Below, one piece after another: positions 14,542-62,740 of a stretch of 64,000 bases of DNA; positions within the stretch are counted from its first letter, which is position 1, and every line of letters begins with the position of its first letter. A model generated the notes under the pieces. It did not search any database and was not told the DNA's origin. It worked only from the letters and a program-made list of their open reading frames with translations. The stretch comes from a bacterium (GTDB lineage Bacteria; Patescibacteriota; Microgenomatia; Levybacterales; UBA12049). The DNA lies in the NCBI GenBank assembly GCA_021777565.1, contig JAJYDJ010000002.1, positions 197,082 through 261,081 on the forward strand, in the 5' to 3' direction. Made by a program: the position numbers and the translations under genes.

Positions 14542-14552
14542 AATATATAACT

Positions 14553-16581: not shown

Positions 16582-16590
16582 TGGTATAAT
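16582..16590 (+). promoter_or_regulatory. perfect extended -10 TGGTATAAT 5 nt upstream of rplB ATG 16596 (possible internal promoter)
   Basis: gagtaaTGGTATAATtgcatATG. Confidence 0.35.
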
Positions 16591-27587: not shown

Positions 27588-27602
27588 TGCTATACTACCC
27601 AT

Positions 27603-30249: not shown

Positions 30250-30255
30250 TATAAT
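30250..30255 (+). promoter_or_regulatory. -10 box TATAAT 6 nt upstream of ATG 30262
   Basis: TTGTAT-16-TATAATaaaaatATG. Confidence 0.45.
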
Positions 30256-30261
30256 AAAAAT

Positions 30262-32951: not shown

Positions 32952-32989
32952 ACGGTGATTATATCAAATACTCCTGTTACAATACTCAC

Positions 32990-35116: not shown

Positions 35117-35152
35117 AGAGTCATTCATAACTGCCCGGAATCGAGGTGATAG

Positions 35153-35428
35153 TTGATGACAAAAAGAGACCTCATTGATATTGTTGCAAAGAAAGCAAAC
35201 CTAACTAACAAGGCAGCTCGCGAAGCTGTGCAAACTATGTTGAACTCTGTTCGTGATAGTTTGAAGAGAGGCGAAAAAGTCGTTATTACTGGTTTCGGTA
35301 CTTTCTCAGTTCGAAGTCGTAAAAAGCGAGCCGGAAGAAACCCAAAGACCGGTGAACGAATTACTATCGATGCACGCAAGGCTCCTGGATTTACCCCAGG
35401 GAAGACTTTGAAAAAAGTTGTTCGATAA
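35153..35428 (+). CDS. hup: DNA-binding protein HU
   Basis: MTKRDLIDIVAKKANLTNKAAREAV...RNPKTGE; strong SD GAGGTGA. Confidence 0.93.
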   Translation: MMTKRDLIDIVAKKANLTNKAAREAVQTMLNSVRDSLKRGEKVVITGFGTFSVRSRKKRAGRNPKTGERITIDARKAPGFTPGKTLKKVVR

Positions 35429-35489: not shown

Positions 35490-35495
35490 TACAAT
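35467..35495 (+). promoter_or_regulatory. promoter -35 TTGTCC, 17-nt spacer, -10 TACAAT, 6 nt upstream of ABC ATPase ATG 35502 (leaderless)
   Basis: TTGTCCaggccttctcttttcgtTACAATacgtatATG. Confidence 0.5.
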
Positions 35496-35501
35496 ACGTA
35501 T

Positions 35502-38075: not shown

Positions 38076-38098
38076 CCTTACCGTGGTATAATAATGGC

Positions 38099-39490: not shown

Positions 39491-42451
39491 CTAGCCCATG
39501 AGATCACGGTATCTGCAGGCGAGGCAGTCTTTTTCACTGCAACGGCTCTCCCAGAAGCTAAGATCTTTGGTCTGTTGGATACAGTCGGTGATGAGTGCTT
39601 GAAGCGCCTGAATATCTTCATCAGTAATGGTAAATGTCTCTGATTTATATGATCCATTCTCAAGTGGGCGGACAAAATCAAGAGATGTCTCACGTGTCGC
39701 AAAACGCTTACTATTCCAATTCTCAACAAGCAGGGCATAGAAGGTTAACTGTCTTTTATACATCCCTTCTTCGCCGTCTTTCTCAAGTGAAGTGCGACTT
39801 TTGGGTCTACCTGTTTTGTAATCATGGATAACCCATCCAAGGTCGGTCTTTTCTAGAAGATCAAGTCTTCCTTTAAGATAGACATCATGACTTACACGCA
39901 CTTTATCAATGGATACTTCTGTCATAAGAGTGTCACTCCAGGAGGACACGATTTGTGAAAGAAAACCTGGGAGATCATGCCCTGCCTGTGTCATACATCG
40001 GGTCTTCATGTCAGAGGAGATATCTTCTTTTGTTAACATCTCATTCAAAGATTGAAGGAGCTCTTCTGTTGTTAGTGATTTTCTCTTCATAAGATACATC
40101 TTAATAAGTGAGTGAATGGCACTCCCATATATCATTGATTCATTTTTCTCTTGTGGTATCTCAATAAGATTTTCAAAAACAAAACGCCAAGGACAGGTGA
40201 GAAAATTATTTAAGGCAGTTGCAGAAATTCCTTTCTGTTGTAAAAGTGCCCAAATATATTTTTGATATAACTCATTTTGGTCGTTCTCTTGAACAATTTT
40301 TTCATGTGTTATGAGTGGTTGGTTGAGTACCTGTTGCTCAAATGCTGCTGTGTCGATTTCCTGAACATCAGATTGCAGTTCAGTGATGAATGATGAAGGG
40401 AGAACATGCTGCCCTGTGGTATCAGTATCTGCATACGTTACTACGACTTCTTTTCTCGCACGAGTAAGTGCAACATAAAAGAGCCTTCTCTCGTCATCTA
40501 CATCACTTGGTTGTGTGCTTAGCCTCGTTAGTGTGTGCCCCCATGGAATTTTAAATTGAGTCGCATGAGTACGATCATTGCCGAATCCCTTCTCAGTTCC
40601 ATGAACAATATAGACAATATCAAACTCTTTTCCCTTCGCTTTGTGCGCCGTCATCAATTGAACACCTTGGCGTAGTTGTTCTGGAATGTTTATAGACAGA
40701 GGGACATGATGGTCTTTCATGGAGGTAATATATCCAAGGAAATCCTCCAGTGTATACGACTCCTGTTTGGCTTGCAGTTCTTGTAGTTTGGCATAGAGTC
40801 GTTGCATTCTCTCAAGATGAAGAATTGAGTCGGGGAGAGTCAGGGCATAAGCAAGTAGTCCCGAAGAGTGAAGCATAGTTACGAAAAGATTGTCTACAGA
40901 TTCCTGGCTGTGACTCAACCACATCTCAAGTTTCATGAGAAATTCTGCTACTGCGTTGTTAAGAGTATGCTCAGACTGTTTGTCTTTCAATAGTTGGATA
41001 AGTGGTATGCGTTTTTCACGTGCTTGTTGGACATACTCATAGAGTGTAAGTGGGGGAATATGAAAGAATGGAAAGTGAAGACAGGCAAAAAGAAAAGTAT
41101 CTTCATGAGGATTTGCGACAAGTTGCAGAAGGGTTATTAGAAAATGGACTGCGACATCATCAAAAATGTTTTCATCTGTATGTGAGAAGAAAGTAATATG
41201 AGCGCTCTGGAGGCTCTCGATCAAGGGATATGCATCTTTATTGTTTCTTATCAAAATTGCTATTTCTTCAGGTGCAGTCCCATGTGAAATCTTATCTTGG
41301 ATGTCTTTTATAATAAATGCGTGTTCTGCATTCAGAGTCGTAAAATGTGCGAGCTGTATGGGACGAGATGGATAGTCCGAATTATGTTTGAGTGGCTCTT
41401 GAGAAAGAAGTGCGGAGCTTTGTGTGATAATTTTGTGCGATGCAGACAAAATGTCTGGCGTTGATCGATAATTTTGATCAAGCGAAATAAACACTGCCGA
41501 CGGATATTTTGTCTTAAAATAAAGAAAATTCTCAAGAGATGCACCCTGAAAACGATAAATTGCCTGCTTATCATCTCCTACAACAAAAAGATTTGGCGCA
41601 TCAAAATAATTGCATAAAAATTCAACAATTTTGTTCTGTGCAGTATTTGTATCTTGATGTTCATCTACCAAAATGTATTGATACTTTTCTTGCAGAGACA
41701 AGAGAAAGTCTGGATGATTGGCAAACGTGTCGAGGGTGATTAATAGCATGTCATTAAAGTCATACAGATGTTTCTCTCGAAGTATCTCTTGATAGTCTTT
41801 ATAGACGAGTAAGAGTTCTTTATTTTTTGCTATCGCTTTTTCTTCGTCTTTATACATTCCCTTCATCTTGCCTTTAAATCTTCCTGAGTCATATATTTTA
41901 TCCGGGGTGTCTAAAAAGGCTTGATCTTGTTGTTGTATCCCTTTCTGTAACATCTCAGGTGTAACTCCTTCTTTCTTGAGCTCATTAATAGCAGAAAGGA
42001 GTGGGCGAACATAATATGCTGGGTCACCAATTGGTTTAAGAATGTCAAAATCATGACTCGTTAGGATTGATTCTATCATTTGGATCTGGTCAAGTTCGGT
42101 TGCCGCGCTACTAGAAACAAATGATGGAAATTCTTCTGGATAGCTTTGGATAAGCATGTTTGCAAGCCCATGGAACGTGTAAATAGACACTCGGTATGCC
42201 GGCGTTCCAATAAGAGAAGCAAGTCTCTCTCTCATCTCAAAGGCTGCATTTTCAGTGAAGGTAAGTGCGAGAATATTCTCAGGGTTTATTTGTGTTTTTA
42301 AAAGGATATTCGCGATGCGTAGGGTAAGCACCTGGGTTTTTCCAGTCCCTGGGCCCGCAGCGACCAGTACAGGCCCTTCAATGGTGTCAACCGCAATTTT
42401 TTGATTTGCATTAAGTTTGTTGTATGCAGTCTCAAATTGAGAGTTCGTCAT
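39491..42451 (-). CDS. UvrD/PcrA-family helicase fused to C-terminal PD-(D/E)xK (RecB/Cas4-like) nuclease with Cys cluster
   Basis: N-terminal AAGPGTGKT Walker A; C-terminal VIHDYKTG nuclease motif and CSEKDCLACRYRD cysteines; 986 aa. Confidence 0.8.
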   Translation of the reverse strand: MTNSQFETAYNKLNANQKIAVDTIEGPVLVAAGPGTGKTQVLTLRIANILLKTQINPENILALTFTENAAFEMRERLASLIGTPAYRVSIYTFHGLANMLIQSYPEEFPSFVSSSAATELDQIQMIESILTSHDFDILKPIGDPAYYVRPLLSAINELKKEGVTPEMLQKGIQQQDQAFLDTPDKIYDSGRFKGKMKGMYKDEEKAIAKNKELLLVYKDYQEILREKHLYDFNDMLLITLDTFANHPDFLLSLQEKYQYILVDEHQDTNTAQNKIVEFLCNYFDAPNLFVVGDDKQAIYRFQGASLENFLYFKTKYPSAVFISLDQNYRSTPDILSASHKIITQSSALLSQEPLKHNSDYPSRPIQLAHFTTLNAEHAFIIKDIQDKISHGTAPEEIAILIRNNKDAYPLIESLQSAHITFFSHTDENIFDDVAVHFLITLLQLVANPHEDTFLFACLHFPFFHIPPLTLYEYVQQAREKRIPLIQLLKDKQSEHTLNNAVAEFLMKLEMWLSHSQESVDNLFVTMLHSSGLLAYALTLPDSILHLERMQRLYAKLQELQAKQESYTLEDFLGYITSMKDHHVPLSINIPEQLRQGVQLMTAHKAKGKEFDIVYIVHGTEKGFGNDRTHATQFKIPWGHTLTRLSTQPSDVDDERRLFYVALTRARKEVVVTYADTDTTGQHVLPSSFITELQSDVQEIDTAAFEQQVLNQPLITHEKIVQENDQNELYQKYIWALLQQKGISATALNNFLTCPWRFVFENLIEIPQEKNESMIYGSAIHSLIKMYLMKRKSLTTEELLQSLNEMLTKEDISSDMKTRCMTQAGHDLPGFLSQIVSSWSDTLMTEVSIDKVRVSHDVYLKGRLDLLEKTDLGWVIHDYKTGRPKSRTSLEKDGEEGMYKRQLTFYALLVENWNSKRFATRETSLDFVRPLENGSYKSETFTITDEDIQALQALITDCIQQTKDLSFWESRCSEKDCLACRYRDLMG

Positions 42452-42470
42452 GAGGATATTCTAACACACT

Positions 42471-45315: not shown

Positions 45316-45708
45316 TTATTTCCCACCCATGAATTGTAGACAATTGCCTTCTGGATCAAGGAACGTGGAAACATATCTTGGGTTTTCCTCTGTATATCCT
45401 GGCATAAGCTCAGGTTCACAGACAATGGTAACCTCAGGATGGGATTTTACTTTTTCATACCAACCAGATACAGAGTTGACGTATAAATTTATGATATGTC
45501 TATATGGATCGGGATTTTTTGCAGCAACTTTGTCATGCTTCCCAATCCATATTGTTGATCCGTCTCCTACTGCGACATCATAACCATAGTCGTTAGGAAT
45601 ATTGAGCTGTCTTGAGATGCTCAGGCCCAGTGTGTCGGTGTAAAACTTCACAAGGACATCAGGAGTGAGAGAAAAAACAAGATATTTGTATCTCTGAATT
45701 GGATCCAT
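45316..45708 (-). CDS. VOC/glyoxalase-family protein
   Basis: C-terminal FLDPEGNCLQF typical of the glyoxalase/bleomycin-resistance fold; start moved to MDPIQRY (track 45813 overlaps tsaD). Confidence 0.6.
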   Translation of the reverse strand: MDPIQRYKYLVFSLTPDVLVKFYTDTLGLSISRQLNIPNDYGYDVAVGDGSTIWIGKHDKVAAKNPDPYRHIINLYVNSVSGWYEKVKSHPEVTIVCEPELMPGYTEENPRYVSTFLDPEGNCLQFMGGK

Positions 45709-45714
45709 GGAGTA

Positions 45715-45720
45715 ATTATA
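45715..45720 (-). promoter_or_regulatory. -10 TATAAT (minus strand, TGtg upstream) 6 nt before VOC ATG 45708
   Basis: minus strand reads TGTGTATAATtactccATG. Confidence 0.45.
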
Positions 45721-46759: not shown

Positions 46760-47296
46760 TTAGTGGATGTTGAAGGTGGCAACATCACCAAGTTTGAATT
46801 GATATTTCTTACTCAAGCCACCACTGATTTCAAGGACGATATTTGATGGCGCGGCTGGCTTGAAAATTTGAGGATTAATTGACTGATTTACTGGTGGTTG
46901 TGCATTCTGGACCATAGTCACAATCTTGTTATTCTGGAAATAGATGATATCGAGTGCAAATCTCATTTGTTTCATCCAGAATCCGTAATAGTCTGGTGTA
47001 TCAAAAAGGAATACCATACCACGGTCCTGTGCTATGCTATCACGATTACCCAGACCTTGTACTTTCTGTTGCTCGCTTCGTGCAACTTCTACGGTAAAGA
47101 CATGTCCATCAATGGTAACAGTAGAAGGGACAGGGGTTGGACTTGCCACAGGAGCAGTTGTTGGGTTAGTTTGTGCACCTTTTTGAAGCTTCGGACTATT
47201 TTGGATGAGCAAAAATACGCCTACGCCAATCGCGATGAGTATTCCTAAAATAAGCCATCGAGAACTTTGCAGTTGCATAGGTATAGTATAGCACAA
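46760..47296 (-). CDS. DUF192 (COG1430) domain protein, secreted or anchored
   Basis: N-terminal TM; RGMVFLFDTPDYYGFWMKQMRFALDIIYF DUF192 core. Confidence 0.7.
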   Translation of the reverse strand: MCYTIPMQLQSSRWLILGILIAIGVGVFLLIQNSPKLQKGAQTNPTTAPVASPTPVPSTVTIDGHVFTVEVARSEQQKVQGLGNRDSIAQDRGMVFLFDTPDYYGFWMKQMRFALDIIYFQNNKIVTMVQNAQPPVNQSINPQIFKPAAPSNIVLEISGGLSKKYQFKLGDVATFNIH

Positions 47297-47300: not shown

Positions 47301-48461
47301 TCAAACGAAAGTAATTTTGACTGGTTTGATGAGAAGGAGTACAGAGATCAAAAAGGAGACAGCAATAGCTGCAATGAATGGTGCTTGTGCACTGTACCAG
47401 GCAAAAAGAAGCCCAAAGACAAATTGTCCAATCGCACTACCGCTATCCCCGGCAATAACATGCATTGCTGATCCTTTTGTCATGTGTTCTGAGGGGAGCG
47501 CATCAAAGGTGAGTCCTTTAATGACAGGAGAAGTACCTCGCGCAAAAATGCCAAGGATAAAAGTGAGTACATATAAGAGAACAATATTAGATGTAATGAG
47601 AAGCAAGATCAAAAGGACACCCATAAGGAACTCGCTATACATGAGTGCGATTGTCCCAGATGACCTTTTTGCAAAAAATCCTATTACCCATCTACCACAC
47701 AGATATCCACCAAAGATACAAGATTGCAAAAGGATGCTGCTTTCAAGTGAATATCCTTTTGCAAGAAAGATGAATGGAAGAAATACGAAAAGCTGTGAAC
47801 TTGCCAGTGAATCAAGAAATTCAAAGACTAATGTGTATAAAAATGTTTTGTTTTTTCTCAGTGGCTGTAGATCTTTTTCTTTGGAAAGTGTTTTTGCAGA
47901 CTGGATATTGGGTAGTACCCACGAGAGAACCAAAGACAGACAAGAAATAAAAATAATACAGAGCAATGGAATCTGCTTGAATCCTAGATATATTGCGCCA
48001 CTAACGATAAGTGGGAAGATAATACGTGCCAGATCTGTCATCATAAATAGTGCTGCAAGCGTGGTATAACGATCACCTGGTTTGGTCATGTGCCCTGCAA
48101 GCGTATTTACCCCTGACATCCCGATACCTACCCCAAATCCTGCAATGATGAACGCACACATAAGTAACGATTGGCTCAGGACAAGATAGCCAGCATAGAG
48201 TATCACTGCGGCCAAGATGAGAAGAAGGGATGATCCGATCATGATCTTCTTTACTGATGCTCGGTGTGCCCATTTTGCTATGACAAATGCACCAAGGATT
48301 AGGAAAAAGATAAAAAGTCCACCCCAGTAGCCAACGGCAAGTTTATTCACAATATGTTCTTCGTAAAATACAGGAAGTAGTACAAAATAAAAAACACCAG
48401 AGCCCTTAACAATAGTTTGCAATAGTGAGAGATTGATATATCCAAAAATGCCCTTTTTCAT
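47301..48461 (-). CDS. MFS transporter
   Basis: 12 TM segments; start moved to MKKGIFGY (ATG 48461) on the basis of TATAAT-N7-ATG; track start 48590 overlaps serS. Confidence 0.7.
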   Translation of the reverse strand: MKKGIFGYINLSLLQTIVKGSGVFYFVLLPVFYEEHIVNKLAVGYWGGLFIFFLILGAFVIAKWAHRASVKKIMIGSSLLLILAAVILYAGYLVLSQSLLMCAFIIAGFGVGIGMSGVNTLAGHMTKPGDRYTTLAALFMMTDLARIIFPLIVSGAIYLGFKQIPLLCIIFISCLSLVLSWVLPNIQSAKTLSKEKDLQPLRKNKTFLYTLVFEFLDSLASSQLFVFLPFIFLAKGYSLESSILLQSCIFGGYLCGRWVIGFFAKRSSGTIALMYSEFLMGVLLILLLITSNIVLLYVLTFILGIFARGTSPVIKGLTFDALPSEHMTKGSAMHVIAGDSGSAIGQFVFGLLFAWYSAQAPFIAAIAVSFLISVLLLIKPVKITFV

Positions 48462-48468
48462 AACGCCT

Positions 48469-48474
48469 ATTATA
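48469..48474 (-). promoter_or_regulatory. -10 TATAAT (minus strand) 7 nt upstream of MFS ATG 48461
   Basis: minus strand reads tcTATAATaggcgttATG. Confidence 0.4.
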
Positions 48475-48510: not shown

Positions 48511-48516
48511 TATAAT
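48511..48516 (+). promoter_or_regulatory. -10 TATAAT 6 nt upstream of serS ATG 48523 (divergent from the MFS promoter)
   Basis: gcgtgTATAATaatctcATGttggatattaaa. Confidence 0.5.
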
Positions 48517-48522
48517 AATCTC

Positions 48523-49809
48523 ATGTTGGATATTAAATACGTCAGGGAGAATAAGGAAAAAGTAGAGAAAGCAGCTCGTGATAAGCACATGACTGTGGAT
48601 ATTACTCATGTGTTGGAGATTGATGATAAACGAAAAGAGTTGCAAATTGTTGTCCAACAACTGCAAGAAGAGAGAAATATCTTAACCAATGCTATCACAG
48701 GTAAACCTACAGATGACCAAATTGCAAAGGGGAAAGAACTACGAGAAAGACTGGCTCGCGAGGAAGATGCACTCAAGGCAGTACAAGAAGAGTTGAAAGA
48801 ATATCTGTATAAAGTTCCTAACGTGCCTCTGGATAGTGTCCCATTCGGTGAGAGTGAAGATGATAACGTCGTAAGTAAGACAGTGGGAGAGCCAACGAAA
48901 TTTAGTTTTCAACCGAAGAATCATTGGGAGATTGCGCAACTGCATGGGTGGATTGATAAAGAACGTGCAGCAAAAGTGAGTGGTGCACGATTTGCATACC
49001 TAAAAGGTGATCTCGTACGACTTCATTTTGCTGTAGTTCAATTTGTCATGCAGACACTGACTGATGAGAGTGTTTTGAAAAAAATTATTGATGGAAACCA
49101 TCTCAATGTTAGTCCAAAAGGATTTGTCCCGGTACTTCCTCCTGCGATGGTAAGGACGGAGCCATATCAAAAAACCGCACGGCTCAACAAAGAGGAAACA
49201 ACATATAAGATTGAAGGTGAGGATGCTTGGCTTAATGCAAGTGCTGAGCACAGTCTATGCCCGATGTATATGGATGAGACACTTGAAGAACAGGAGTTGC
49301 CACTTCGCTTTATTGGGTATAGTACTTCTTTTAGAAAAGAAGCCGGGACCTATGGGAAGGATATGGAAGGTATTTTACGCATGCACCAATTTGATAAATT
49401 GGAAATGGAAAGCTTCACAACACCAGAAGAAGGATTGGAAGAACATGCATTTTTAATTGCAATTCAAGAATATCTGATGCAGGAATTAGGACTTCCTTAT
49501 CGGGTTTTGCAAAAGTGCGTTGCCGATATTGGTGGGCCAAATGCCGCAGGAGTAGACATAGAAGTTTGGCTTCCAGGTCAGCAAAAGTATCGAGAAACGC
49601 ACACGGCTGACTACATGACTGATTACCAAGCACGAAGATTACAGACTCGTATTAAAGGGAAAGGATTCGTTCATACCAATGATGCGACTGCTATGTCACA
49701 ACGTCCGCTTATCGCGATTCTTGAGAACTATCAACAAGAAGATGGAAGTGTACGGGTTCCACAAGTGCTTCAAAAATGGATTGGGAAAGAAGTTATTGGC
49801 GAAAAATAA
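48523..49809 (+). CDS. serS: seryl-tRNA synthetase
   Basis: MLDIKYVRENKEKVEK canonical SerS N-terminus; class II motifs; track GTG start 48508 includes the -10 box. Confidence 0.93.
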   Translation: MLDIKYVRENKEKVEKAARDKHMTVDITHVLEIDDKRKELQIVVQQLQEERNILTNAITGKPTDDQIAKGKELRERLAREEDALKAVQEELKEYLYKVPNVPLDSVPFGESEDDNVVSKTVGEPTKFSFQPKNHWEIAQLHGWIDKERAAKVSGARFAYLKGDLVRLHFAVVQFVMQTLTDESVLKKIIDGNHLNVSPKGFVPVLPPAMVRTEPYQKTARLNKEETTYKIEGEDAWLNASAEHSLCPMYMDETLEEQELPLRFIGYSTSFRKEAGTYGKDMEGILRMHQFDKLEMESFTTPEEGLEEHAFLIAIQEYLMQELGLPYRVLQKCVADIGGPNAAGVDIEVWLPGQQKYRETHTADYMTDYQARRLQTRIKGKGFVHTNDATAMSQRPLIAILENYQQEDGSVRVPQVLQKWIGKEVIGEK

Positions 49810-50790: not shown

Positions 50791-50845
50791 ACCAATTAAT
50801 TGATCAATTGGTTTCCCCCCGCGTTTATCGTGGGGGGATTTGTGT
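50791..50845 (+). terminator. hairpins after the small peptide ORF: CCAATT-N8-AATTGG, then 9-bp GC hairpin CCCCCCGCG-tttat-CGTGGGGGG followed by ATTTGTGT
   Basis: 50791-50810 and 50815-50837. Confidence 0.5.
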
Positions 50846-50850: not shown

Positions 50851-50859
50851 TGATAAAAT
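50851..50859 (+). promoter_or_regulatory. extended -10 TGaTAAAAT 6 nt upstream of secA ATG 50866
   Basis: gTGATAAAATagatgtATGgcaATG. Confidence 0.45.
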
Positions 50860-50865
50860 AGATGT

Positions 50866-53532
50866 ATGGCAATGAATTTCCTTACCAAAATTTTTGATTC
50901 AAACGAGAAAGAGATAAAACGTCTTCAGACAATTACTACCGAAATTAATGCCCTTGAGCCTGCGATGCAGAAACTTAAGATTGAAGACTTCCCTAAAAAA
51001 ACTACTCAACTGAAAGAAAGAGTTGCTGCTGGTGAGTCTCTTGACGCACTGCTGCCGGAAGCTTTTGCTCTGGTGCGTGAAGCGACGGTGCGTTCACTAG
51101 GCATGCGTCATTTTGATGAGCAGATTATGGGAGGCATTGTCCTCTCTGAGGGGAAAATTGCTGAACAAAAGACTGGTGAAGGAAAAACGTTGACTGCGGT
51201 ACTACCACTTTACCTCCATGCATTGACTGGCAAGGGTGTTCATTTAGTTACGGTCAACGACTATCTTGCGAGACTTGGTGCTGGATGGGTAGGGCCAATT
51301 TTTGATCTACTCGGCATGAAAGTATCGGCAATGATTAATAACGCATCTTTTGTTTTTGATGTGAATTATGAAAACCCCAGTGTGAAAGATTTCAGACTTG
51401 CCAGGCTCAAGCCAATTGAACGAAAAGAAGCATATGCTGTTGACGTTACGTATGGTATTAACTCAGAATTTGGATTTGATTATTTGCGTGACAACATGGC
51501 ACAAGATAAAGCACAACTTGTACAGCGTGGATATTATTACGCGATTGTTGATGAAGTTGACTCGGTGCTTATTGATGAGGCCCGAACACCGCATATTATC
51601 TCAGCACCGGATGAAGTTCCAACAGATAAGTATTATCAGTATGCACAAATCGTAGATAAACTTGTCCCAGATACTGATTTTACACTTGATGAAAAACAGC
51701 GAAGTGCACATTTGACAGAACGCGGACTCACAAAGATTGAGAAATTATTTGGTATTACAGAAATTTATGAAAAAGATTTTGACACGGTATATCATTTGGA
51801 AGCTGCACTGAAAGCACGAGCACTTTTCCATAAGGAAAAAGATTATATTGTTCGCGATAATCAGGTAATTTTGGTTGACGAATTTACAGGAAGACTTATG
51901 GAGGGTCGTCGACTTTCAGAAGGACTGCATCAAGCACTTGAAGCAAAAGAGAATGTCACAATTCAGCGTGAATCCAAGACGCTCGCTACTGTCTCATTGC
52001 AGAATTATTTTCGTATGTATACCCATCTCGCCGGTATGACGGGTACTGCAACGACAGAGGCGGAAGAGTTCCACAAAATTTATAAATTAGATGTTGTTGC
52101 TATACCCACGCATAATCCTGTGCAGCGCGAGGATATGCCAGACATCATTTATAAAACAGAACGCGCGAAATTTGCAGCAGTAGTCAGAGAGGTTGAAGAA
52201 GCACATGCAAAAGGGCAACCAGTATTGATTGGTACTACGTCAATTGAAAGAAATGAAATTCTTTCACAATTTCTCAAAAGAAAGGGTATTGTCCACGAAC
52301 TTTTAAATGCAAAGAATCACGAACGGGAAGCGCAGATTATTGCAAAAGCAGGTGAAAAAGGAGCAGTAACCGTTGCAACCAACATGGCTGGAAGAGGAGT
52401 TGATATTATCCTTGGTGGCGACGTCCCAAAGCTTGAGGATGGGAATGTGGAGCCTGAAAGTAAAGAGTATAAAGAATGGCAGAAAAAGCATGACGAGGTT
52501 GTACAGCTTGGTGGACTGTACGTCATCGGTACAGAACGACATGAATCCAGAAGAATTGATAATCAGCTCAGAGGGCGCAGTGGTCGCCAGGGGGACCCTG
52601 GAAAGTCACAATTCTTTGTCTCACTCTCTGATGATGTCATGAGACTTTTTGGTGGAGATAGTATCGCCAATATGATGACAAGACTCAATATGCCTGAGGA
52701 CACTCCACTTTCACATAATCTTGTATCGCGCGCCATTGAACAAGCTCAAATGAAAGTTGAAGGATATAACTTTGATGTACGTAAATATGTCGTTGAATAT
52801 GATGATGTCCTTAATAAACAGCGTGAGATCATTTACAAGAAAAGAAATTCAGTACTTCTCACGGAAGATAAAGAAGAACTACATACACTCGTGCATGACG
52901 CCCTGCATGGTGCTCTTTCGCTCGTTCTCATGCAAGTGCAGGAGAGTGATGCAGATGATATGAATGCAAAGATTATGAATGAACTGGTCACCATTATTCC
53001 TTTTGATCCGACATCTCAGCAGCAGATACTCACACAACTCATGCAGCTGCGTACATTTGAAGAAAAAGAATCTTTCCTCACCCAATTACTGACCGATGTA
53101 TTTACCAAACATGAAACAGATCTCGGGGAGACGGCAGTACCTATTTATCGATTTGTTTTCTTGAAGGCTATTGATGATCTATGGATGGACCATCTTACGA
53201 CGATGGAAGCACTCCGCGAAGGGGTGAGGCTAAGAGGATATGGGCAAAAAGACCCACTGGTGGAATATAAAAATGAAGGATTCACGCTTTTTGAGAGACT
53301 CATGAACAGTATTGATGATACGGTTGCGCATACTGTCTTTAAGATTCGTATGGATGTAAATCCATTTCAACAAATGCCACAAGGTATGCCGGAAAAAGAA
53401 ACAGAAAAGATAGCATCAACGGCTAAAAAAACAAAAGAAAAAGAAAAAAAGTCTGGAGATAAACCAGGTCGTAATGACCCCTGCTGGTGTGGCAGTGGGA
53501 AAAAATATAAAAAATGTCACTTCCCTAACTAA
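50866..53532 (+). CDS. secA: preprotein translocase ATPase SecA
   Basis: DEAD motor domains, C-terminal zinc-binding CWCGSGKKYKKCH. Confidence 0.96.
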   Translation: MAMNFLTKIFDSNEKEIKRLQTITTEINALEPAMQKLKIEDFPKKTTQLKERVAAGESLDALLPEAFALVREATVRSLGMRHFDEQIMGGIVLSEGKIAEQKTGEGKTLTAVLPLYLHALTGKGVHLVTVNDYLARLGAGWVGPIFDLLGMKVSAMINNASFVFDVNYENPSVKDFRLARLKPIERKEAYAVDVTYGINSEFGFDYLRDNMAQDKAQLVQRGYYYAIVDEVDSVLIDEARTPHIISAPDEVPTDKYYQYAQIVDKLVPDTDFTLDEKQRSAHLTERGLTKIEKLFGITEIYEKDFDTVYHLEAALKARALFHKEKDYIVRDNQVILVDEFTGRLMEGRRLSEGLHQALEAKENVTIQRESKTLATVSLQNYFRMYTHLAGMTGTATTEAEEFHKIYKLDVVAIPTHNPVQREDMPDIIYKTERAKFAAVVREVEEAHAKGQPVLIGTTSIERNEILSQFLKRKGIVHELLNAKNHEREAQIIAKAGEKGAVTVATNMAGRGVDIILGGDVPKLEDGNVEPESKEYKEWQKKHDEVVQLGGLYVIGTERHESRRIDNQLRGRSGRQGDPGKSQFFVSLSDDVMRLFGGDSIANMMTRLNMPEDTPLSHNLVSRAIEQAQMKVEGYNFDVRKYVVEYDDVLNKQREIIYKKRNSVLLTEDKEELHTLVHDALHGALSLVLMQVQESDADDMNAKIMNELVTIIPFDPTSQQQILTQLMQLRTFEEKESFLTQLLTDVFTKHETDLGETAVPIYRFVFLKAIDDLWMDHLTTMEALREGVRLRGYGQKDPLVEYKNEGFTLFERLMNSIDDTVAHTVFKIRMDVNPFQQMPQGMPEKETEKIASTAKKTKEKEKKSGDKPGRNDPCWCGSGKKYKKCHFPN

Positions 53533-54809: not shown

Positions 54810-54815
54810 TATACT

Positions 54816-55505
54816 TTGTTTATGACAGAAGATATCCTTACCTCGCTTGGAGCTCAACCCTCAGTAAGTGAGGAACGTGGATTGGCACTCCTTAATGATA
54901 CTGATCTTGTAATTTTCAGCCCAGGTATTAGCACTGGAGGATTTGCTGAGATTCGTATGGCAAAATCCAATCCTTCAAGACATATCATCTCCACTACGAT
55001 TGATGATAAAGGATTATCCTTTGCACAAGAAGTGATAGAAACCTCAGGAGTTAAAAATCAAATTGACACAAAACTCGAAGATTTGCGTGACATGAATTAT
55101 CCGGAAGACTATTTTGATTTTATCTATGCTCGTTTGGTACTTCATTATCTCTCTGCACAAGATCTTGATGCAGTACTACATCGCATGTATCTGTCTCTTA
55201 AGAAGAATGGTAGGATTTTTGTTGTTGTAAGGTCTATAAAAAACCCTAACACCAATGACCCGGAATATACATATGACCCAGTAACAAAATTAAGTAGAGA
55301 TGTGCATAGGCGAGCAGACGGGTCAATTGAAGCAACAAGTGTCAGATATTTTCATTCGCCAGAAAGTATCAGTGAACATCTTGAGAGTGCAGGATTTCAT
55401 ATAGTCGCCATAGAAGAGTATCAAGAGCGCCTCTATAAGGATTTCATGAGAAAAGAAATTTCCCCTAATATTGACCATCTCATTGAGGTCGTTGCAACAA
55501 AATAA
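54816..55505 (+). CDS. class I SAM-dependent methyltransferase
   Basis: Rossmann-like VIFSPGISTGG... motif I region; 229 aa. Confidence 0.55.
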   Translation: MFMTEDILTSLGAQPSVSEERGLALLNDTDLVIFSPGISTGGFAEIRMAKSNPSRHIISTTIDDKGLSFAQEVIETSGVKNQIDTKLEDLRDMNYPEDYFDFIYARLVLHYLSAQDLDAVLHRMYLSLKKNGRIFVVVRSIKNPNTNDPEYTYDPVTKLSRDVHRRADGSIEATSVRYFHSPESISEHLESAGFHIVAIEEYQERLYKDFMRKEISPNIDHLIEVVATK

Positions 55506-55947: not shown

Positions 55948-56925
55948 CTAAAAGTCTGGGATGACCGTTGACTTCACTTTCTTTAATTTTGCCACATAAA
56001 ATCCTTCCATAGTTTCTGATGGTGAGACACGAAGTGTTTTCACAAGGTCAGGGTTATAATTTCTTTTACCAAATGACGTCAGTCCTGGCATGGCATCAGT
56101 GAGCGAGGGAATAGAAACTTTTTCTACCTCAAGACATCCTTGCTCTTTCTCTAAAATCCAATCAACAACCTCTTCATTTTCCTCCGGAGAGAGCGTGCAG
56201 GTAGAGTACACGATCGTGCCACCCACCTTTGTCGCACTCACAGCAGACCGTATGAGAAATTTTTGTTTTTGTGAAAGTTCTTTCACTTTTTTTGGGGACC
56301 AGTCAGCATATGATTTTGGATCTTCAGTGTAAAATCTCCCTTCCATACTACAAGGAACATCTACCAGGGTTTTATCAAAATACTGTGGGCTTTGTTTCCA
56401 CAAAAACTCTCCGGGCATCATAACTATCGTGGTATTAGTAACTCCTTGCACTGCTAAATTAGCCTTGAGACGGAAGTTTCGTATTCGACTACTATCATTG
56501 GCGATAATTTCTCCCGTGTTTTCCATCATTGCTGCCATTTGGGTTGTTTTGCTGCCTGGTGCTGCACACAGATCAAGTACTTTATCTCCCTTTTGTGGGT
56601 CAAGAACAAGTGGTGGAATCATACTTGAGAGACTCTGTACATAGAGCTCCCCTTGAGTATAGTAGTCGGTCGCCGTTAAGACTTTCTGTTCAACATTTTT
56701 TAAGATAAAAGCGATAGTATTCCAAGAGACAGTATCGACATGAATGCCTAGTTGTGCAAGTGCAGAGAGTAGAGCCTCTTGTGTCGTTTTGAGTGTGTTG
56801 ACTCTGAAGGTGGAGGGCTTTCTCTTTGAAAATGAAGCAAGCACACGATCATAGTCTCTCGTCTCTGGGAAGAGGAGATGGAGTTTTTCTAAAAATGCTT
56901 GTGGCAAGCTCTGCGTGTCGTTCAT
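55948..56925 (-). CDS. rRNA cytosine-C5 methyltransferase (RsmB/RsmF, NOL1/NOP2/Sun family)
   Basis: DLCAAPGSKTTQ SAM motif, catalytic DVPCSMEG. Confidence 0.75.
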   Translation of the reverse strand: MNDTQSLPQAFLEKLHLLFPETRDYDRVLASFSKRKPSTFRVNTLKTTQEALLSALAQLGIHVDTVSWNTIAFILKNVEQKVLTATDYYTQGELYVQSLSSMIPPLVLDPQKGDKVLDLCAAPGSKTTQMAAMMENTGEIIANDSSRIRNFRLKANLAVQGVTNTTIVMMPGEFLWKQSPQYFDKTLVDVPCSMEGRFYTEDPKSYADWSPKKVKELSQKQKFLIRSAVSATKVGGTIVYSTCTLSPEENEEVVDWILEKEQGCLEVEKVSIPSLTDAMPGLTSFGKRNYNPDLVKTLRVSPSETMEGFYVAKLKKVKSTVIPDF

Positions 56926-56931
56926 GGCTGT

Positions 56932-56940
56932 ATTGTACCA
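56932..56940 (-). promoter_or_regulatory. extended -10 TGGTACAAT (minus strand) 6 nt upstream of RsmF-like ATG 56925
   Basis: minus strand reads TGGTACAATacagccATG. Confidence 0.45.
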
Positions 56941-56986
56941 GAAAAAGGCATGGGAGGTGGGTCTCTCCTGTCAATTTAGCACTCTC

Positions 56987-57014
56987 TTGACAAGACTGAT
57001 AAAGGCGTTATAAT
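56987..57014 (+). promoter_or_regulatory. consensus sigma-70 promoter TTGACA-16-TATAAT, 6 nt upstream of clpB ATG 57021 (leaderless)
   Basis: TTGACAagactgataaaggcgtTATAATagttttATG. Confidence 0.6.
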
Positions 57015-57020
57015 AGTTTT

Positions 57021-59186
57021 ATGAACCCGAATGACCAGAATGGCATCCCAGATTTTCTTAAGCCGGTGAGCCATGAAGAGGCACTCAAAAAATTTACCAT
57101 CAACCTCACACAGGTCGCCAAATCAGGCAAAATAGATCCTGTCATCGGACGCGAGTCAGAAATCCGTCGTGTTATGGAAATTCTTTCAAGGCGTACGAAA
57201 AATAATCCTGTTCTAATAGGTGATCCAGGTGTTGGGAAAACCGCTATCGTTGAAGGATTAGCGCTTCAGATTGTCGAAGGGAAGGTCCCAACCACTCTGA
57301 AGGACAAGGAGGTTTTGATGCTAGATTTTGCTCAGCTGTTAGCGGGAGCGAAGTTCCGTGGCGAATTTGAAGAGCGCCTCAAGGGTGTTATTAAAGGGAT
57401 AGAAGACAGCGATGGCAAATATATTATTTTTATTGATGAGCTTCATACAATTATCGGTGGTGGATCCAGTGAAGGTGGGACTGACGCCGCCAACATTTTG
57501 AAGCCATCACTTGCTCGTGGGACTCTGCGTACGATTGGAGCAACAACTGTCACTGAGTATCGACGATATATTGAGAAGGATCCAGCGTTGGCAAGGCGTT
57601 TTCAACAGGTTTTGGTTGAAGAGCCTACGGTGGAAGATACTATTTCAATTCTTCGTGGCATCAAAGAGAGGTATGAATTGCATCATGGCATCCGTATTAC
57701 AGACAATGCACTCATTGCCGCAGCTCGTCTGTCAGCACAATATATTCCTCAGAGATTTCTTCCTGACAAGGCAATTGATTTGATTGATGAAGCGGCAGCT
57801 GCTATTAAGATTGAGACAGAGAGTATGCCTGCAGAGTTGGATGCGCTTAAGCGTCGCATTACCCAGCATGAAATTAGTCTCACAGCGTTGAAAAAGGAAA
57901 AGACTGATATCGCACGGTCCCGAGCCGAACAAGAGAGGAAAGACGCAGAGCAATTGAAAAATGAAGCAGAAACTATAGAGAAGCGTTGGAGTGAACAGAA
58001 GGACTTAATTCAAAAATTGCAGGGAGTAAGAGCAAAAATAGACGCGTTGCGTATAGAACTTGAGCAGGCAGAAAGAGACGTCCAATTGGAAAAAGCTGCA
58101 GAGATTAAGTTTGGTAAGATTCCGGAATTAGAAAAAGAACTACAAACTCTTCAGTCAGAGTGGGACAAAATTCCAAGTGAAGAAAAAGTACTGCGTGAAG
58201 AAGTAGATGAGGATGATATTGCTAAAGTCGTTGGTCGCTGGACAGGTGTGCCCGTCACACGGATGCTTGCAAGTGAAGCAGAACGACTAGCACATCTGGA
58301 AGATGAACTGAAAGAGCGAGTTATTGGGCAGGATGAAGCGCTAGTACTTCTGGCACGCGCTATTAGACGGTCACGTTCTGGATTGTCTTCCAAATCAAAA
58401 CCGGTTGGTTCATTTCTTTTCCTTGGTCCAACAGGTGTGGGTAAGACAGAAACAGCCAAAGCACTGGCTACGATTCTGTTTAACGACGAACATGCAATGA
58501 CGCGCATTGATATGAGTGAATATCAGGAATCACACACTGTGGCACGACTGATTGGCGCACCTCCAGGATATGTTGGATATGAAGAAGGTGGGCAGCTCAC
58601 TGAGGCAGTCAGGAGAAAACCATACTCGGTGATCCTTATCGACGAGATTGAGAAAGCTCATCCACAGGTATTTAATCTTTTCTTGCAAATATTTGACGAG
58701 GGAAGATTGACGGATAGTAAAGGAGTTACGGTGGATTTCAAAAATGCCATCATTATTATGACAAGCAATATTGGCAGTGACATCATACTGGAAGAATCAA
58801 GTGCAAAGAAACAAAATAAGGATGAACTGCAGAAGAAAATGTGGGCAAGACTTCGTGACTTTTTCAAACCTGAATTTTTAAACAGGCTTGATAGTGTTGT
58901 AATCTATAACGCGTTAACAGTTCGCGATATGTTAGAAATTGCGAAATTACAACTTGAAGAAGTGAAAGAGAGACTTGCTGAAAATGATATCAACTTTACC
59001 TTTGATGATGACCTGGCATTCTACTTTGCTGAAAATGGGTATGATCCGGATTTCGGTGCCCGTCCACTCAAGAGGCTTATCGAAGAGAAGTTGGTCGATG
59101 AAATTGCTATGAGAATTGTTGAGAATCGTATTAAACCAGGAGATACTATTACTCCCAAAATTGAAGATGGGAAAATTACCTTCTAA
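57021..59186 (+). CDS. clpB: ClpB-type AAA+ disaggregase lacking the N-terminal domain
   Basis: Two AAA modules ([16 protein letters not shown]), long coiled-coil M-domain between Walker B and sensor of D1; 721 aa. Confidence 0.85.
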
Positions 59187-59216: not shown

Positions 59217-59222
59217 TACAAT
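59217..59222 (+). promoter_or_regulatory. -10 TACAAT 6 nt upstream of GTG start 59229
   Basis: ggcTACAATcaagagGTG. Confidence 0.35.
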
Positions 59223-59228
59223 CAAGAG

Positions 59229-60884
59229 GTGAAAAGATTTTTCTCTTCTCAGTGGTGTATTGTAATCGCTATTTTTCTTCTGGCACTTGGTATTCGTGTG
59301 ATTAGCTTGTCTAGCCTCCCAAATGGATTTCATATTGATGAAGTCATGACTGGCTATGTGGGGAGACTCATCCTTTTGACCGGGAGAGACATCTATGGGA
59401 ATCATTGGCCACTCTGGTACTTTAATACTTTTGGTGATTATCGCGTTATTGCACCGTTTTATATCAATGGACTTTCGACGTTTATATTTGGTGTAAACAT
59501 TTTTGCCATACGATTCCCTGCTGCCCTTTTTGGGGCATTGATTGTATTCCCAATGTACACGATCAGTAAGTCAATTTTTGGGAAAAATTATTTTGCCTAT
59601 GTCCCTCCCCTTCTTTTGGCAGTATTGCCTTGGCATATCATTCTCTCTCGTGCAACATCAGAGGGAATTATGGGGTTAACGGTGCTCCTGACTGGTATGG
59701 CTTTTTTGGTAGCATCCATTCAAAACAAGAAGATGTTACACATTCTAGTTGGGACAGTTCTTCTTGCAGTGACTTATTTTTTATACCCTTCATTTCGTGT
59801 CTTAGCACCTCTGTCCTTAATACCATTTATTTTTATTGCATCAGAAAAGAAGAAATGGTATGCCATCATGCTTCTCTTGCTGCTAGTTCTGACGTACTGT
59901 GTCGGGAATACGGTATGGGGGAGAGGGAGATTTGAACAAACCTCTATTTTCTCTGGTACCACAGCACAGCAGGTAGCCGCACGTACCCAAGGGCTCTCCT
60001 TTGCAGAAGGGCCATCTCATATTGTCCTTGCAAAGATATTTGACAATAAAGCAGTCGCCTATTCAAATATTTTGTTAAACAATTATTTAGTTTACTTCTC
60101 ACCACAATTTCTGTACGGGAACGAAAGATTCCCAGACCGTTATGTTGTCCCTTACTTCGGACTTTTGTTCGGAGCACTGATACTTCTTTTGACAGGACTG
60201 TTACTTCCACGGATAAAAGAAGAGAATCTTTCTTGGTATCTTGCCTGTTGGTATTTTCTTATCATTGCGCCACTCCCTGGTATGCTTACGGCAGATGATA
60301 TCCCAAATCTTCATCGTGTTCTTTTTATGATGATACCTTTTGTTTTGATGGGAACCTATGGACTGAAGCGATGGTTATCTCTCTTTAAGAGATGGCCAGT
60401 TGCTCGTAATGGGTTTATTGTACTCTGCGTGATAGCGGGGCTTGGGGAGTTGGTCTTTTTTGGCCATGCGTATGCAGTACAATCACCATCCTACAGAAGT
60501 GAAGCCCGTAATGATGGGTATATTGCCCTTGTATCTTATTTAAAGCAAGCTCATGAGAACAATATCCCACTTCTTATTTCAGCGCAAGATAGCGTGGCCA
60601 TATATTATCTTTTCTTTACGAATAATTTTGATCAGAAGTATGCAGGGGCCTTCAAAGGTGACGTGAAAATAGGACAAATTGATAACATGACTTTTACGGA
60701 CATGTGGTGCCCATCAACAATTTATGCAAAGGACCCTTACAAACCTCCCGTTACGATTGTTGAATATGGAGACTGTAAAGTCCCTTCAACGTATAAAATA
60801 GAGAAGGTAATTATGAGAAAAGATAGTACAACTGCCTTCCATGTCCTCACCTGGCAAGGGCTCCCACCAGGGGCACAAAATTAG
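59229..60884 (+). CDS. GT39/GT83-family (ArnT/PMT-like) membrane glycosyltransferase
   Basis: Multi-TM; conserved HIDEVM Asp-Glu motif in first extracytoplasmic loop; 551 aa. Confidence 0.75.
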   Translation: MKRFFSSQWCIVIAIFLLALGIRVISLSSLPNGFHIDEVMTGYVGRLILLTGRDIYGNHWPLWYFNTFGDYRVIAPFYINGLSTFIFGVNIFAIRFPAALFGALIVFPMYTISKSIFGKNYFAYVPPLLLAVLPWHIILSRATSEGIMGLTVLLTGMAFLVASIQNKKMLHILVGTVLLAVTYFLYPSFRVLAPLSLIPFIFIASEKKKWYAIMLLLLLVLTYCVGNTVWGRGRFEQTSIFSGTTAQQVAARTQGLSFAEGPSHIVLAKIFDNKAVAYSNILLNNYLVYFSPQFLYGNERFPDRYVVPYFGLLFGALILLLTGLLLPRIKEENLSWYLACWYFLIIAPLPGMLTADDIPNLHRVLFMMIPFVLMGTYGLKRWLSLFKRWPVARNGFIVLCVIAGLGELVFFGHAYAVQSPSYRSEARNDGYIALVSYLKQAHENNIPLLISAQDSVAIYYLFFTNNFDQKYAGAFKGDVKIGQIDNMTFTDMWCPSTIYAKDPYKPPVTIVEYGDCKVPSTYKIEKVIMRKDSTTAFHVLTWQGLPPGAQN

Positions 60885-61868: not shown

Positions 61869-62691
61869 TTATGATTTCTACAGCACCAATAATAAAAAGA
61901 AGTGTCGGTATCTCTTTAAAGAAAATAAGACCCAAGAGTGCTCCAACAATTGGTTCAAGCATCAAAATCATAGTGCCGGTACCGGCAGAGACAGTAAGAA
62001 AACCTTTATTTGTTAAGTAATATGCGGCAAAATTAAAGACGCCAAAAATGAGGATTAACATGCCATTGAACGGATTTAAGTGAATAGCTTGATGTTCCAA
62101 GAAGATGGCGCCAAATGCACTCGTAAGCATTGCTATGCTGACACTCCAGAAAGTTATACTCTCTGGAGAATATCCTCTCTTAAGAAGAACACGGCTCCCA
62201 ATCACATATATCCCAAAACAGGTTGATGCTAAGAATGCGAGTGTATTCCCCCAAAGGTACTGTCCAAGCTGTGTGGGATTAAATATCAAAATTAAAACAC
62301 AGAAAAGGAGCACCATGGCAATTGCAAGATTTTTTGTAATCTTCTCTTTTAAAATGAAAGCAGCCAGAATGCCAGTTATGATGGGGTAGGACGAAAAGAT
62401 AAATACAACGTTACCAATAGTACTATGGTAAATTGCATAAGTATAAAGCATGATCTGAAGCCCATATCCAACGACGCCCATGATCAAGATGACCAGATAG
62501 TCACTTTTTGTCTTAAGCAATAGATTTTGTTTTTTTTGGATAGTTACTGCTCCCATGAGTGCGCAGGCGATAATGAGGCGTAAAAATGTCTGCCCAAAAG
62601 GGGCTAAATCTGTGCTCAGAAATCGCACAAGTATGCCCATTGAGCCATAGCAACACGCTGCCAGAACTAAATAAAGGTAACCTTTTTTCAT
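61834..62691 (-). CDS. EamA/DMT-family transporter
   Basis: 10 TM helices, two EamA repeats. Confidence 0.7.
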   Translation of the reverse strand: MKKGYLYLVLAACCYGSMGILVRFLSTDLAPFGQTFLRLIIACALMGAVTIQKKQNLLLKTKSDYLVILIMGVVGYGLQIMLYTYAIYHSTIGNVVFIFSSYPIITGILAAFILKEKITKNLAIAMVLLFCVLILIFNPTQLGQYLWGNTLAFLASTCFGIYVIGSRVLLKRGYSPESITFWSVSIAMLTSAFGAIFLEHQAIHLNPFNGMLILIFGVFNFAAYYLTNKGFLTVSAGTGTMILMLEPIVGALLGLIFFKEIPTLLFIIGAVEIIIAIYITTVKIK

Positions 62692-62740
62692 AAGAAGAAG
62701 TTTACAAGAGTGGGTAGGAGTTGTATAATTGACGTCGGAT

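Follow-up and report, generated by a model that had tools for sequence, protein, structure and literature searches.

Hexamers of the -10 type 6 nt before start codons point to leaderless mRNAs in a low-GC Microgenomates-type Patescibacterium

Introduction

An mRNA is usually called leaderless when its 5' untranslated region is at most about 5 nt long, and in Escherichia coli leaderless expression depends strongly on how close the AUG lies to the 5' end. In Deinococcus deserti, leaderless genes were reportedly described by de Groot in 2014 as having a "-10-motif adjacent to ORF" (open reading frame). In Deinococcus radiodurans, a TANNNT hexamer lies about 6 to 7 bp before approximately one-third of the ORFs, in addition to a GGAG motif, and was identified experimentally as the promoter of leaderless genes. 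This -10-motif is sufficient by itself, and expression rises when a -35 element is present at 17 bp (PMC12340547). Genomes with a Pribnow box 6 to 8 nt from the first genes of operons and a ribosome-binding site (RBS) at internal genes form "group C" of GeneMarkS-2, to which 90% of Actinobacteria and 97% of Deinococcus-Thermus belong (PMC6028130); those using genetic code 11 are almost all high-GC (MetaGeneMark-2 preprint, 10.1101/2022.07.25.500264). Here we describe a comparable arrangement in a 64,000-nt stretch of DNA (GenBank assembly GCA_021777565.1, contig JAJYDJ010000002.1, positions 197,082 to 261,081 of the forward strand), referred to as the window, from a Microgenomates-type Patescibacterium of the candidate phyla radiation (CPR), in which a TATAAT-like hexamer precedes many start codons by 6 nt.

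The leaderless mechanism is a known one, and what appears to be new is the lineage, since no report of leaderless mRNAs in Patescibacteria/CPR (including Saccharibacteria and Microgenomates) was found in the literature. The domain-wide survey in the Deinococcus paper excluded unclassified and symbiotic species (PMC12340547), and a study of CPR ribosomes, which describes loss of the anti-Shine-Dalgarno (anti-SD) sequence in some Parcubacteria and a short bS1, does not mention leaderless mRNAs (PMC9297842).

Results and discussion

Enrichment and spacing of the hexamer

We interpret the hexamers as -10 boxes of sigma-70 (sigma-A)-type promoters whose transcripts would be leaderless, with the A of the start codon as first base, and assign this reading a probability of about 0.8. 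Where this reading makes predictions that can be examined in sequence, they held. The strict motif TA[TC]A[AC]T (TAYAMT) separated by 6 nt from an ATG (N6, the number of nucleotides between the hexamer and the start codon) was found 16 times in the window, compared with 2.97 ± 1.74 times in 100 dinucleotide shuffles (shuffle maximum, 8), so that the enrichment over shuffled sequence anticipated genome-wide by the original prediction, which had been made from the sequence alone, was present at the scale of the window. When the spacing was varied from N0 to N24, the peak of 16 matches fell on N6 and the other spacings gave 0 to 5, except for N2 with 10; the latter matches precede ORFs of 4 to 23 codons and were dismissed as noise. 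All 16 strict N6 matches start ORFs of 130 to 721 codons, although, of all the ATGs that the window contains, only 16.6% lead into an ORF of 100 codons or more.

Gene starts for the statistics were taken from 77 public gene calls on an identical contig, made independently of the motif and spanning positions 2216 to 64000 plus 1.5 kb past the window end; the 65.5 kb considered belong to a contig of 953 kb, and "genome-wide" is to that extent an extrapolation. The loose motif TANNNT was located at N6 in 21 of the 77 genes (background, 1.53 per position; binomial p = 2.6e-18) and the strict motif in 18 (background, 0.1 per position; p = 1.7e-35), and three genes each had TANNNT at N5 and at N7. 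Following replacement of three public starts on homology grounds (secA 50866, ABC ATPase 35502, and tuf 10415), TANNNT preceded 28 genes (36%) at N5 to N7, where about 4.6 would be so placed by chance. The start codon of these 28 candidates is ATG in all but one, a GTG at 59229. A divergent gene pair just past the window (starts at 65160 on the minus strand and 65208 on the plus strand, 47-bp spacer) bore out a blind prediction, with TATAAT and TACAAT, both at N6.

With a GC content of 41% and some 1.5 loose matches per position per 77 genes, one might suspect that AT richness produces the matches by chance and that starts were picked to fit the motif. This explanation conflicts with the shuffles, the spacing profile, the ORF lengths, the independent gene calls, and the prediction made for the pair past the window; it was rejected, and we consider it extremely improbable.

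Each of the 17 loci listed in the original prediction had a hexamer 5 to 7 nt before the start given there, although the secY entry (CATAAT, 23094) lacked statistical support, and rplB (16585..16598, plus strand; TGG-TATAAT, N5, ATG 16596) was upheld in part: its hexamer TGGTATAAT is present at N5, while its role as an internal promoter is tentative and merely plausible, the gene being operon internal. At least nine further loci had not been listed: rplC (14553), rpoA (27603), a kinase-like gene (32951, minus strand), recX (32990), an AI-2E transporter gene (38099), an addA-like gene (42451, minus strand), a DUF192 gene (47278, minus strand), a methyltransferase gene (54822), and an EamA transporter gene (62691, minus strand). 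The TAGTAT at N6 before rpsE was read as a chance match, this gene being SD adjacent and stop/start coupled to its neighbor (gap of 1 nt).

Comparison with described leaderless systems

The sequence-level features characteristic of group C genomes and of Deinococcus were encountered here as well. The TANNNT peak at N6 falls within the typical interval of 6 to 8 nt before starts; the share of genes preceded by the motif, 36%, lies within the range of about 25 to 50%; SD-type RBSs are found on other, operon-internal or leadered, genes; and the hexamer has the context of a promoter -10 box (sigma contacts, -35, operator), as judged by sequence. The likeness to Deinococcus-Thermus extends to the hexamer before about one-third of the ORFs, the GGAG RBS for the rest, the frequent absence of a -35 box, and the common TACACT/TATACT-like variants. 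The differences are that the host is not a GC-rich free-living bacterium but a Patescibacterium with a genome of approximately 1 Mb and 41% GC, that the spacing is sharper (N6 only), and that the evidence is from sequence and not from experiment.

Actinobacteria (Mycobacterium tuberculosis, Mycobacterium smegmatis, Streptomyces) share the Pribnow box at operon-first genes, the SD sites internally, and a proportion of 25 to 50% of transcripts, but use both GTG and ATG at their leaderless starts, whereas here ATG is used in 27 of 28. The low GC content also sets the host apart from nearly all code-11 group C genomes. Group C mycoplasmas (genetic code 4) likewise have reduced, AT-rich genomes, with 30 to 60% of transcripts predicted to be leaderless (10.1101/2022.07.25.500264); they belong to another phylum and use another genetic code, and here strong GGAGG SD sites are kept for the ribosomal operons. 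In archaea (Haloferax and Sulfolobus; "group D"), mRNAs also start at the start codon and SD sites serve internal genes alongside, but the TATA box lies about 22 to 26 nt upstream and the transcription machinery is different.

If the leaderless reading holds, this genome would challenge the impression that standard-code bacterial group C genomes are essentially high-GC and would extend heavy leaderless use to bacteria whose ribosomes are reduced (lacking uL30 and having a truncated uL2 and a reportedly short bS1). It would also provide a start rule for uncultured CPR genes, namely, an ATG 6 nt after TAYAMT, which flags tuf, the ABC ATPase gene, secA, and several starts of a program-made ORF list; would make promoter and predicted transcription start site maps obtainable without a transcriptome; would explain how independent promoters fit into the 12- to 25-nt spacers of a genome of about 1 Mb; and would affect the heterologous expression of CPR genes, many of which would be devoid of any RBS.

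Evidence that the hexamers act in DNA

The motif occupies the usual position of an RBS, and the bS1 protein of CPR bacteria is reported to be unusual and short, with three or four domains (PMC9297842). Both points favor an alternative in which the hexamer works as a UAUAAU-like RNA element, a non-SD A/U-rich RBS or S1 site, on leadered mRNAs made from unseen upstream promoters, resembling group B of GeneMarkS-2. Several observations speak for DNA instead. The extended -10 TGn, a feature of contact between DNA and sigma, was present in 13 of the 28 candidates, compared with 44 of 488 other TANANT hexamers (odds ratio, 8.7; p = 1e-6). The matches are concentrated at a single spacing instead of being spread over a range, and the tightly coupled internal genes are without the motif, in contrast to the group B (Bacteroidota-type) pattern of the same motif before both first and internal genes of an operon. 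In Deinococcus, experiments decided the same question in favor of promoter function (PMC12340547). Together with the clpB promoter and the terminators described below, these findings make the RNA-element explanation very improbable.

The hexamer of clpB (57009..57023, plus strand; TATAAT, N6, ATG 57021), with an in-frame stop codon six codons upstream of the start, is preceded by the -35 box TTGACA (56987..56992, plus strand), located 16 bp upstream of TATAAT (57009-57014). This TTGACA-16-TATAAT, which had been listed in the original prediction, matches the consensus in 12 of 12 positions, and it was the sole such promoter in a 20-kb scan. A CIRCE (controlling inverted repeat of chaperone expression)-like inverted repeat of the HrcA operator type, TTAGCACTC-N9-GACTGATAA (56976..57002, plus strand), encloses the -35 box; it has two mismatches to the consensus, both in the right arm (7 of 9 matching), where 0.02 matches would be expected by chance. 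The operator and the -35 box upstream of clpB are kept in the relatives L001 to L010, and the right arm is perfect in L007, L009, and L010. The complete module of operator, -35, and -10 was found in nine close relatives, in which the clpB ATG follows the -10 box by 6 nt (L001, L003, L006, and L008), 8 to 10 nt (L002, L004, L005, and L009), or 14 nt (L007); in L010, the module lies about 100 nt upstream of the start. Since operator and -35 are conserved around it, the clpB hexamer is best regarded as a promoter -10 box.

As in known CIRCE/HrcA heat shock promoters, the repeat is of the TTAGCACTC-N9-GAGTGCTAA type and is placed at the promoter of a heat shock chaperone gene, the identity of ClpB being given by TIGR03346 (1,069 bits). 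Unlike in those promoters, the operator encloses the -35 box and the right arm is degenerate; the placement around the -35 would follow from there being no leader to house the operator. These features suggest that HrcA controls clpB in this lineage, and no HrcA domain was found among the gene calls of the window. In the ClpB protein (57021-59186; 721 aa), the match to the ClpB equivalog model begins at position 151 of the model, so that the N-terminal domain is lacking, and more distant patescibacterial homologues reach about 150 aa further upstream.

Terminators immediately upstream of secA and rplC leave no space there for a further promoter or a lengthy leader. At secA (50854..50868, plus strand; TGA-TAAAAT, N6, ATG 50866), a hairpin of 10 pairs, 8 of them GC, followed by a T-run (50814..50838, plus strand), ends 27 nt before the ATG, and at rplC (14541..14555, plus strand; TAATAT, a match to the loose motif, N6, ATG 14553), the terminator-like GC-rich hairpin GCGGCTCCGGGCCGC plus T6 directly adjoins the hexamer. 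The latter lies in the rpsJ-rplC spacer (14395-14552; 158 nt), an unusual one, which also contains a TACAAT and a 10-codon mini-ORF (MMVQTFGVIT*) besides GCGGCTCCGGGCCGC-T6 and may serve in attenuation or autoregulation.

In the divergent pairs, each gene has its own hexamer at N6 or N7, in agreement with the original prediction. The start-to-start distances are 38 bp between the P-loop kinase-like gene (32949..32963, minus strand; TATAAT, N6, ATG 32951) and recX (32978..32992, plus strand; TACAAT, N6, ATG 32990), 61 bp between the MFS transporter gene (48459..48474, minus strand; TATAAT, N7, ATG 48461) and serS (48511..48525, plus strand; (GTG)TATAAT, N6, ATG 48523), 95 bp between rsmF (56923..56937, minus strand; TGG-TACAAT, N6, ATG 56925) and clpB, and 47 bp in the pair outside the window.

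Genes at most 8 nt behind their neighbor lack the motif, save for the loose TAGTAT of rpsE, and have GGAGG/GGAG or a stop/start overlap. Same-strand genes with the motif sit 12 to 42 nt behind the neighbor, and the minimum spacer of 12 nt, before the methyltransferase gene (54810..54824, plus strand; TATACT, N6, ATG 54822), is exactly the length of the hexamer plus 6 nt. Many of these candidates follow a same-strand gene by 12 to 25 nt with no terminator between, as would also be seen if the hexamers were minor internal promoters and the clustered genes (HAD, MBL, rpoA, AI-2E, DUF192, VOC, and the methyltransferase at 54822) were expressed mostly by polycistronic read-through. The clustered candidates, however, have neither SD nor stop/start overlap, and thus no obvious initiation signal on a polycistronic RNA, and read-through cannot account for the divergent and terminator-flanked cases; we judge it quite unlikely.

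The motif in relatives and in other phyla

The distribution of the motif was determined by a uniform measure: ORFs of 150 codons or more were scored for the strict motif at N5 to N8 before an ATG among their first 100 codons. The motif was present in 19 of 70 ORFs of the window (27%), 11 of 69 in close ClpB relatives (16%), 81 of 843 in SerRS-related loci (about 10%), 3 of 101 in a small sample of other Patescibacteria (Falkow-, Morani-, Pacei-, and Saccharibacteria and Parcubacteria; 3%), and 8 of 691 in other phyla (1.2%). As far as the motif indicates, the trait is common to the close and the putative (SerRS-related) relatives of the host and not to all CPR sampled, the samples of other classes being small.

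The start of serS is unambiguous, as the N-terminal MLDI of SerRS is conserved in 77 relatives. Among 71 nonredundant metagenomic loci (SerRS identity, 54 to 63%), the region upstream of serS contained TAnnnT at N5 to N7 in 38 and at N8 to N11 in 12, an SD-like sequence in 13, and neither in 8; in the SD-led loci the -10 box lies further upstream where visible, e.g., in L117. In the SerRS loci with serS itself left out, the strict motif preceded ORFs of at least 100 codons 26, 40, 25, 18, and 14 times at N6, N7, N8, N9, and N10, respectively, and about 4 times elsewhere. Loci with a leaderless-type serS had no more leaderless neighbors (10%) than SD-led serS loci (11 to 12%).

The favored spacing varied by locus, being N6 in the window and in L001, L003, L006, and L008, N7 to N8 in L002, L004, and L005, and N10 in a serS subgroup (L123, L137, L139, L142, and L154), all in small numbers. 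The preferred distance from -10 to ATG thus seems, from these sequences, to be lineage specific. Whether leaderless initiation at about one-third of the genes is lineage-wide in Microgenomates-type Patescibacteria, with the spacing quantized by sublineage (N6, N7 to N8, N10), is in our estimate an evenly balanced proposition; if true, it would give the CPR their first example and group C a rare low-GC member using code 11, and the spacing classes would imply lineage-specific selection of the transcription start site or tolerance of 1- to 4-nt leaders by the reduced CPR ribosome.

The predicted transcription start

The single-position peak at N6, taken together with canonical sigma-70 geometry, predicts that position +1 is the A of the ATG. 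In the proposed sequence of events, RNA polymerase would bind the -10 box TA[T/C]A[A/C]T, often TGn extended and usually with a poor -35; with the last T of the hexamer 6 bp before the ATG, +1 would fall on the A of the ATG and the transcript would start with pppAUG; and the ribosome, initiator tRNA, and IF2 would engage the 5'-terminal AUG directly, with no SD pairing, for which a leader of 0 nt has no room. Genes in tight operons (the ribosomal clusters and ABC permeases) would use a GGAGG-type SD or stop/start overlap coupling instead. The leaderless mode would thus operate in about one-third of the genes of the window, including those 12 to 25 nt behind a same-strand neighbor. We infer the position of the transcription start and the SD-independent translation from the geometry of the sequence. 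A single N6 peak is what would be expected if even short 5' extensions were disfavored.

It is also conceivable that the promoters are real but that the first transcribed base precedes the ATG by a few positions, so that the mRNAs carry mini-leaders of 1 to 5 nt. The preference of relatives for N7 to N8 or N10 agrees with this, as do the N5 and N7 cases and the N11 to N13 class in the window. On the other side, the peak in the window is confined to N6 (21 genes versus 3 and 3), the canonical distance for +1 on A, which makes mini-leaders unlikely; under the definition of about 5 nt they would, moreover, be functionally of the same class as leaderless mRNAs.

Several results weigh against the proposal that transcription from these hexamers starts on the A of the start codon. 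Chance alone should account for about 5 of the 28 loose-motif loci. The full consensus TTGACA-N16-18-TATAAT was not enriched in the window (42 versus 48.6 ± 7.1 in shuffles), and most candidates have no recognizable -35 box, the mean best -35 score being 2.87 versus 2.59 in the control; good -35 boxes were seen in few promoters, those of clpB, TrmB, tuf, and hup. The first 30 to 45 nt of the candidate leaderless mRNAs showed no reduction in structure relative to other genes. The spacing in relatives is broader or shifted (N7 to N8 or N10), and a strict +1 on A may therefore not hold everywhere. Lastly, an intermediate class with a -10 box at N11 to N23 and no SD (TrmB, rpsD, infA, fusA, and rpsJ) indicates that short SD-less leaders occur too. 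The weak -35 boxes would fit promoters driven by the -10 or extended -10, by analogy with D. radiodurans.

For the intermediate class, the arrangements are TTTACA-17-TATAAT-N11 at TrmB (62724-62743), TGTGTATAAT-N12 at rpsD (26970-26984), TATAAT-N13 at infA (25789-25810), and TAGAAT-N16 at fusA (5218-5242), from which SD-less leaders of 4 to 10 nt are predicted for these four genes. Two candidate indicators of leaderless transcripts were discarded: a reduced 5' structure, as the minimum free energy of positions +1 to +45 was -3.5 kcal/mol in candidates versus -2.7 kcal/mol in other genes (p = 0.07), the opposite direction, and a pyrimidine at -1, which was present in 27 of 28 candidates but, by eye, also in most noncandidates and was not discriminating.

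Anchoring of the start codons

The starts of the candidates agree with protein family models. Positions 1 to 3 of Pfam/NCBIfam models fall within residues 1 to 7 of the HAD, MBL, kinase-like, RecX, AI-2E, SerRS, SecA, RsmF, and uL3 proteins; for example, model position 1 of RsmF_N corresponds to residue 7 of RsmF, position 1 of Seryl_tRNA_N to residue 1 of SerRS, positions 1 and 2 of the Pfam model of the kinase-like protein to residues 4 and 5, position 3 of RecX_HTH1 to residue 6 of RecX, and position 2 of L3_bact to residue 4 of uL3. For the AddA-like, PIG-L, and RpoA proteins, the models start within the first 13 to 24 residues. Public gene calls have the same starts for rsmF (56925), clpB (57021), and the MFS transporter gene (386 aa), and they also match the original starts for rplB and secY.

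The original prediction had shortened several genes on the grounds that the longer starts in the ORF list lie inside the promoter, and this explanation stood: the rejected GTG of serS (48508), for example, is the "GTG" of GTGTATAAT. Public calls agree with the shortened MBL, methyltransferase, VOC, MFS, and serS genes, while the ABC ATPase start at 35502 is ambiguous: the public record has the gene begin at 35568, and the alignments to NCBIfam models set in at about residue 23 to 33, but a start at 35502 brings in an "LISVNHFSKYY" strand of the kind usual at ABC N termini. The secA start is likewise ambiguous (50866 in the NCBI call and 50872 in the ENA call).

Two further starts attracted attention. 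The public tuf gene (426 aa), which is called from 10313, is too long by about 34 codons; the conserved N terminus of EF-Tu begins at 10415, 40 nt after TTGACG-17-TATCAT (10346-10374), with a predicted leader of about 33 nt and no obvious SD. In the DUF6799 gene (region 7881-7920), the SD AAAGGAGGTGA adjoins GTG 7891, the public call is ATG 7918, 27 nt away, and an in-frame ATT at 7900 is better spaced from this SD.

Remaining candidate loci

Of the remaining candidates on the plus strand, the HAD hydrolase (3127..3141; ATG 3139, 18-nt gap after rpsG), MBL-fold hydrolase (3783..3797; ATG 3795), and PIG-L deacetylase (12170..12184; ATG 12182) genes have TATACT at N6, rpoA (27591..27605; ATG 27603, 15-nt gap after rpsD) has TGC-TATACT at N6, the SurA-like gene (30250..30264; ATG 30262) has TATAAT at N6, and the AI-2E transporter gene (38087..38101; ATG 38099) has TGG-TATAAT at N6. 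The ABC ATPase gene (35490..35504; ATG 35502) is preceded by TTGTCC-17-TACAAT at N6, and the PMT_2/GT39-like gene (59217..59231; TACAAT, N6, GTG 59229) is the sole GTG case.

The minus strand contains the genes for cyclophilin (5178..5191; TACAAT, N5, ATG 5180), an RlmI-like methyltransferase (10261..10275; TGC-TATAAT, N6, ATG 10263; public call, 292 aa), an AddA-like helicase-nuclease (42449..42463; TGT-TAGAAT, N6, ATG 42451), a VOC/glyoxalase protein (45706..45720; TGTG-TATAAT, N6, ATG 45708; public call, 130 aa), and a DUF192 protein (47276..47290; TGC-TATACT, N6, ATG 47278), as well as two loose-motif cases at N7, a 167-aa ORF (13976..13991; TATAGT, ATG 13978) and the EamA transporter gene (62689..62704; TAAACT, ATG 62691).

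SD-led genes

The operon-internal ribosomal genes have GGAGG/GGAG sites or stop/start overlaps, as had been proposed. GGAGG/GGAG was found 6 to 14 nt before rplD, rpsS, rpsC, rplP, rpmC, rplN, rplX, rplF, rplR, rpsI, hup, and the first ABC2 permease gene, and AGGA before the second. At rpsC (17925..17944, plus strand), the SD AAAGGAGG lies 6 nt before ATG 17942, and rplF, rplR, rplN, rplX, and rplD are alike. The strong SD sites claimed for hup and for a 26-aa peptide gene were confirmed as GAGGTGA and GAGGAGGTGA, respectively; hup (35139..35158, plus strand; ATG 35156) also has, some 60 nt upstream, a promoter of the TTGACA type. The peptide, MPAKKKTTKRKTTTKRTTKKTTKKRK (50694-50774), is Lys/Thr rich and is followed by the 10-bp GC-rich terminator at 50814-50838; it could be a small basic protein, perhaps associated with the ribosome or the nucleoid.

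Other features of the window

Sequence identical to the window is present in ENA contig ERZ27236897 k141_2336031 (953,194 bp), where the window starts at 197,118, and in NCBI GCA_027424575.1. Among species-representative genomes, the closest ClpB loci belong to a "Patescibacteria group bacterium" (79% identity) and to Candidatus Blackburnbacteria (70%; NCBI, Microgenomates group). The genetic code reads as 11, since the table 11 ORF list and the translations of the gene calls fit TGA as a stop codon. A 16S rRNA 3' end, sought for its anti-SD, was found in none of the relative loci fetched, and the window contains no rRNA.

The gene content comprises rpoC'-rpsL-rpsG, fusA, tuf, the S10, spc, and alpha ribosomal clusters, recA/recX, serS, secA, and clpB. 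No rpmD (uL30) was called between rpsE and rplO, and uL2 (rplB, 16596-17333) lacks about 28 N-terminal residues relative to bacterial models; an absent L30 and an N-terminally truncated uL2 are typical CPR traits (PMC9297842). The uL3 protein (rplC, 14553-15491) has a C-terminal extension of about 110 aa relative to bacterial models.

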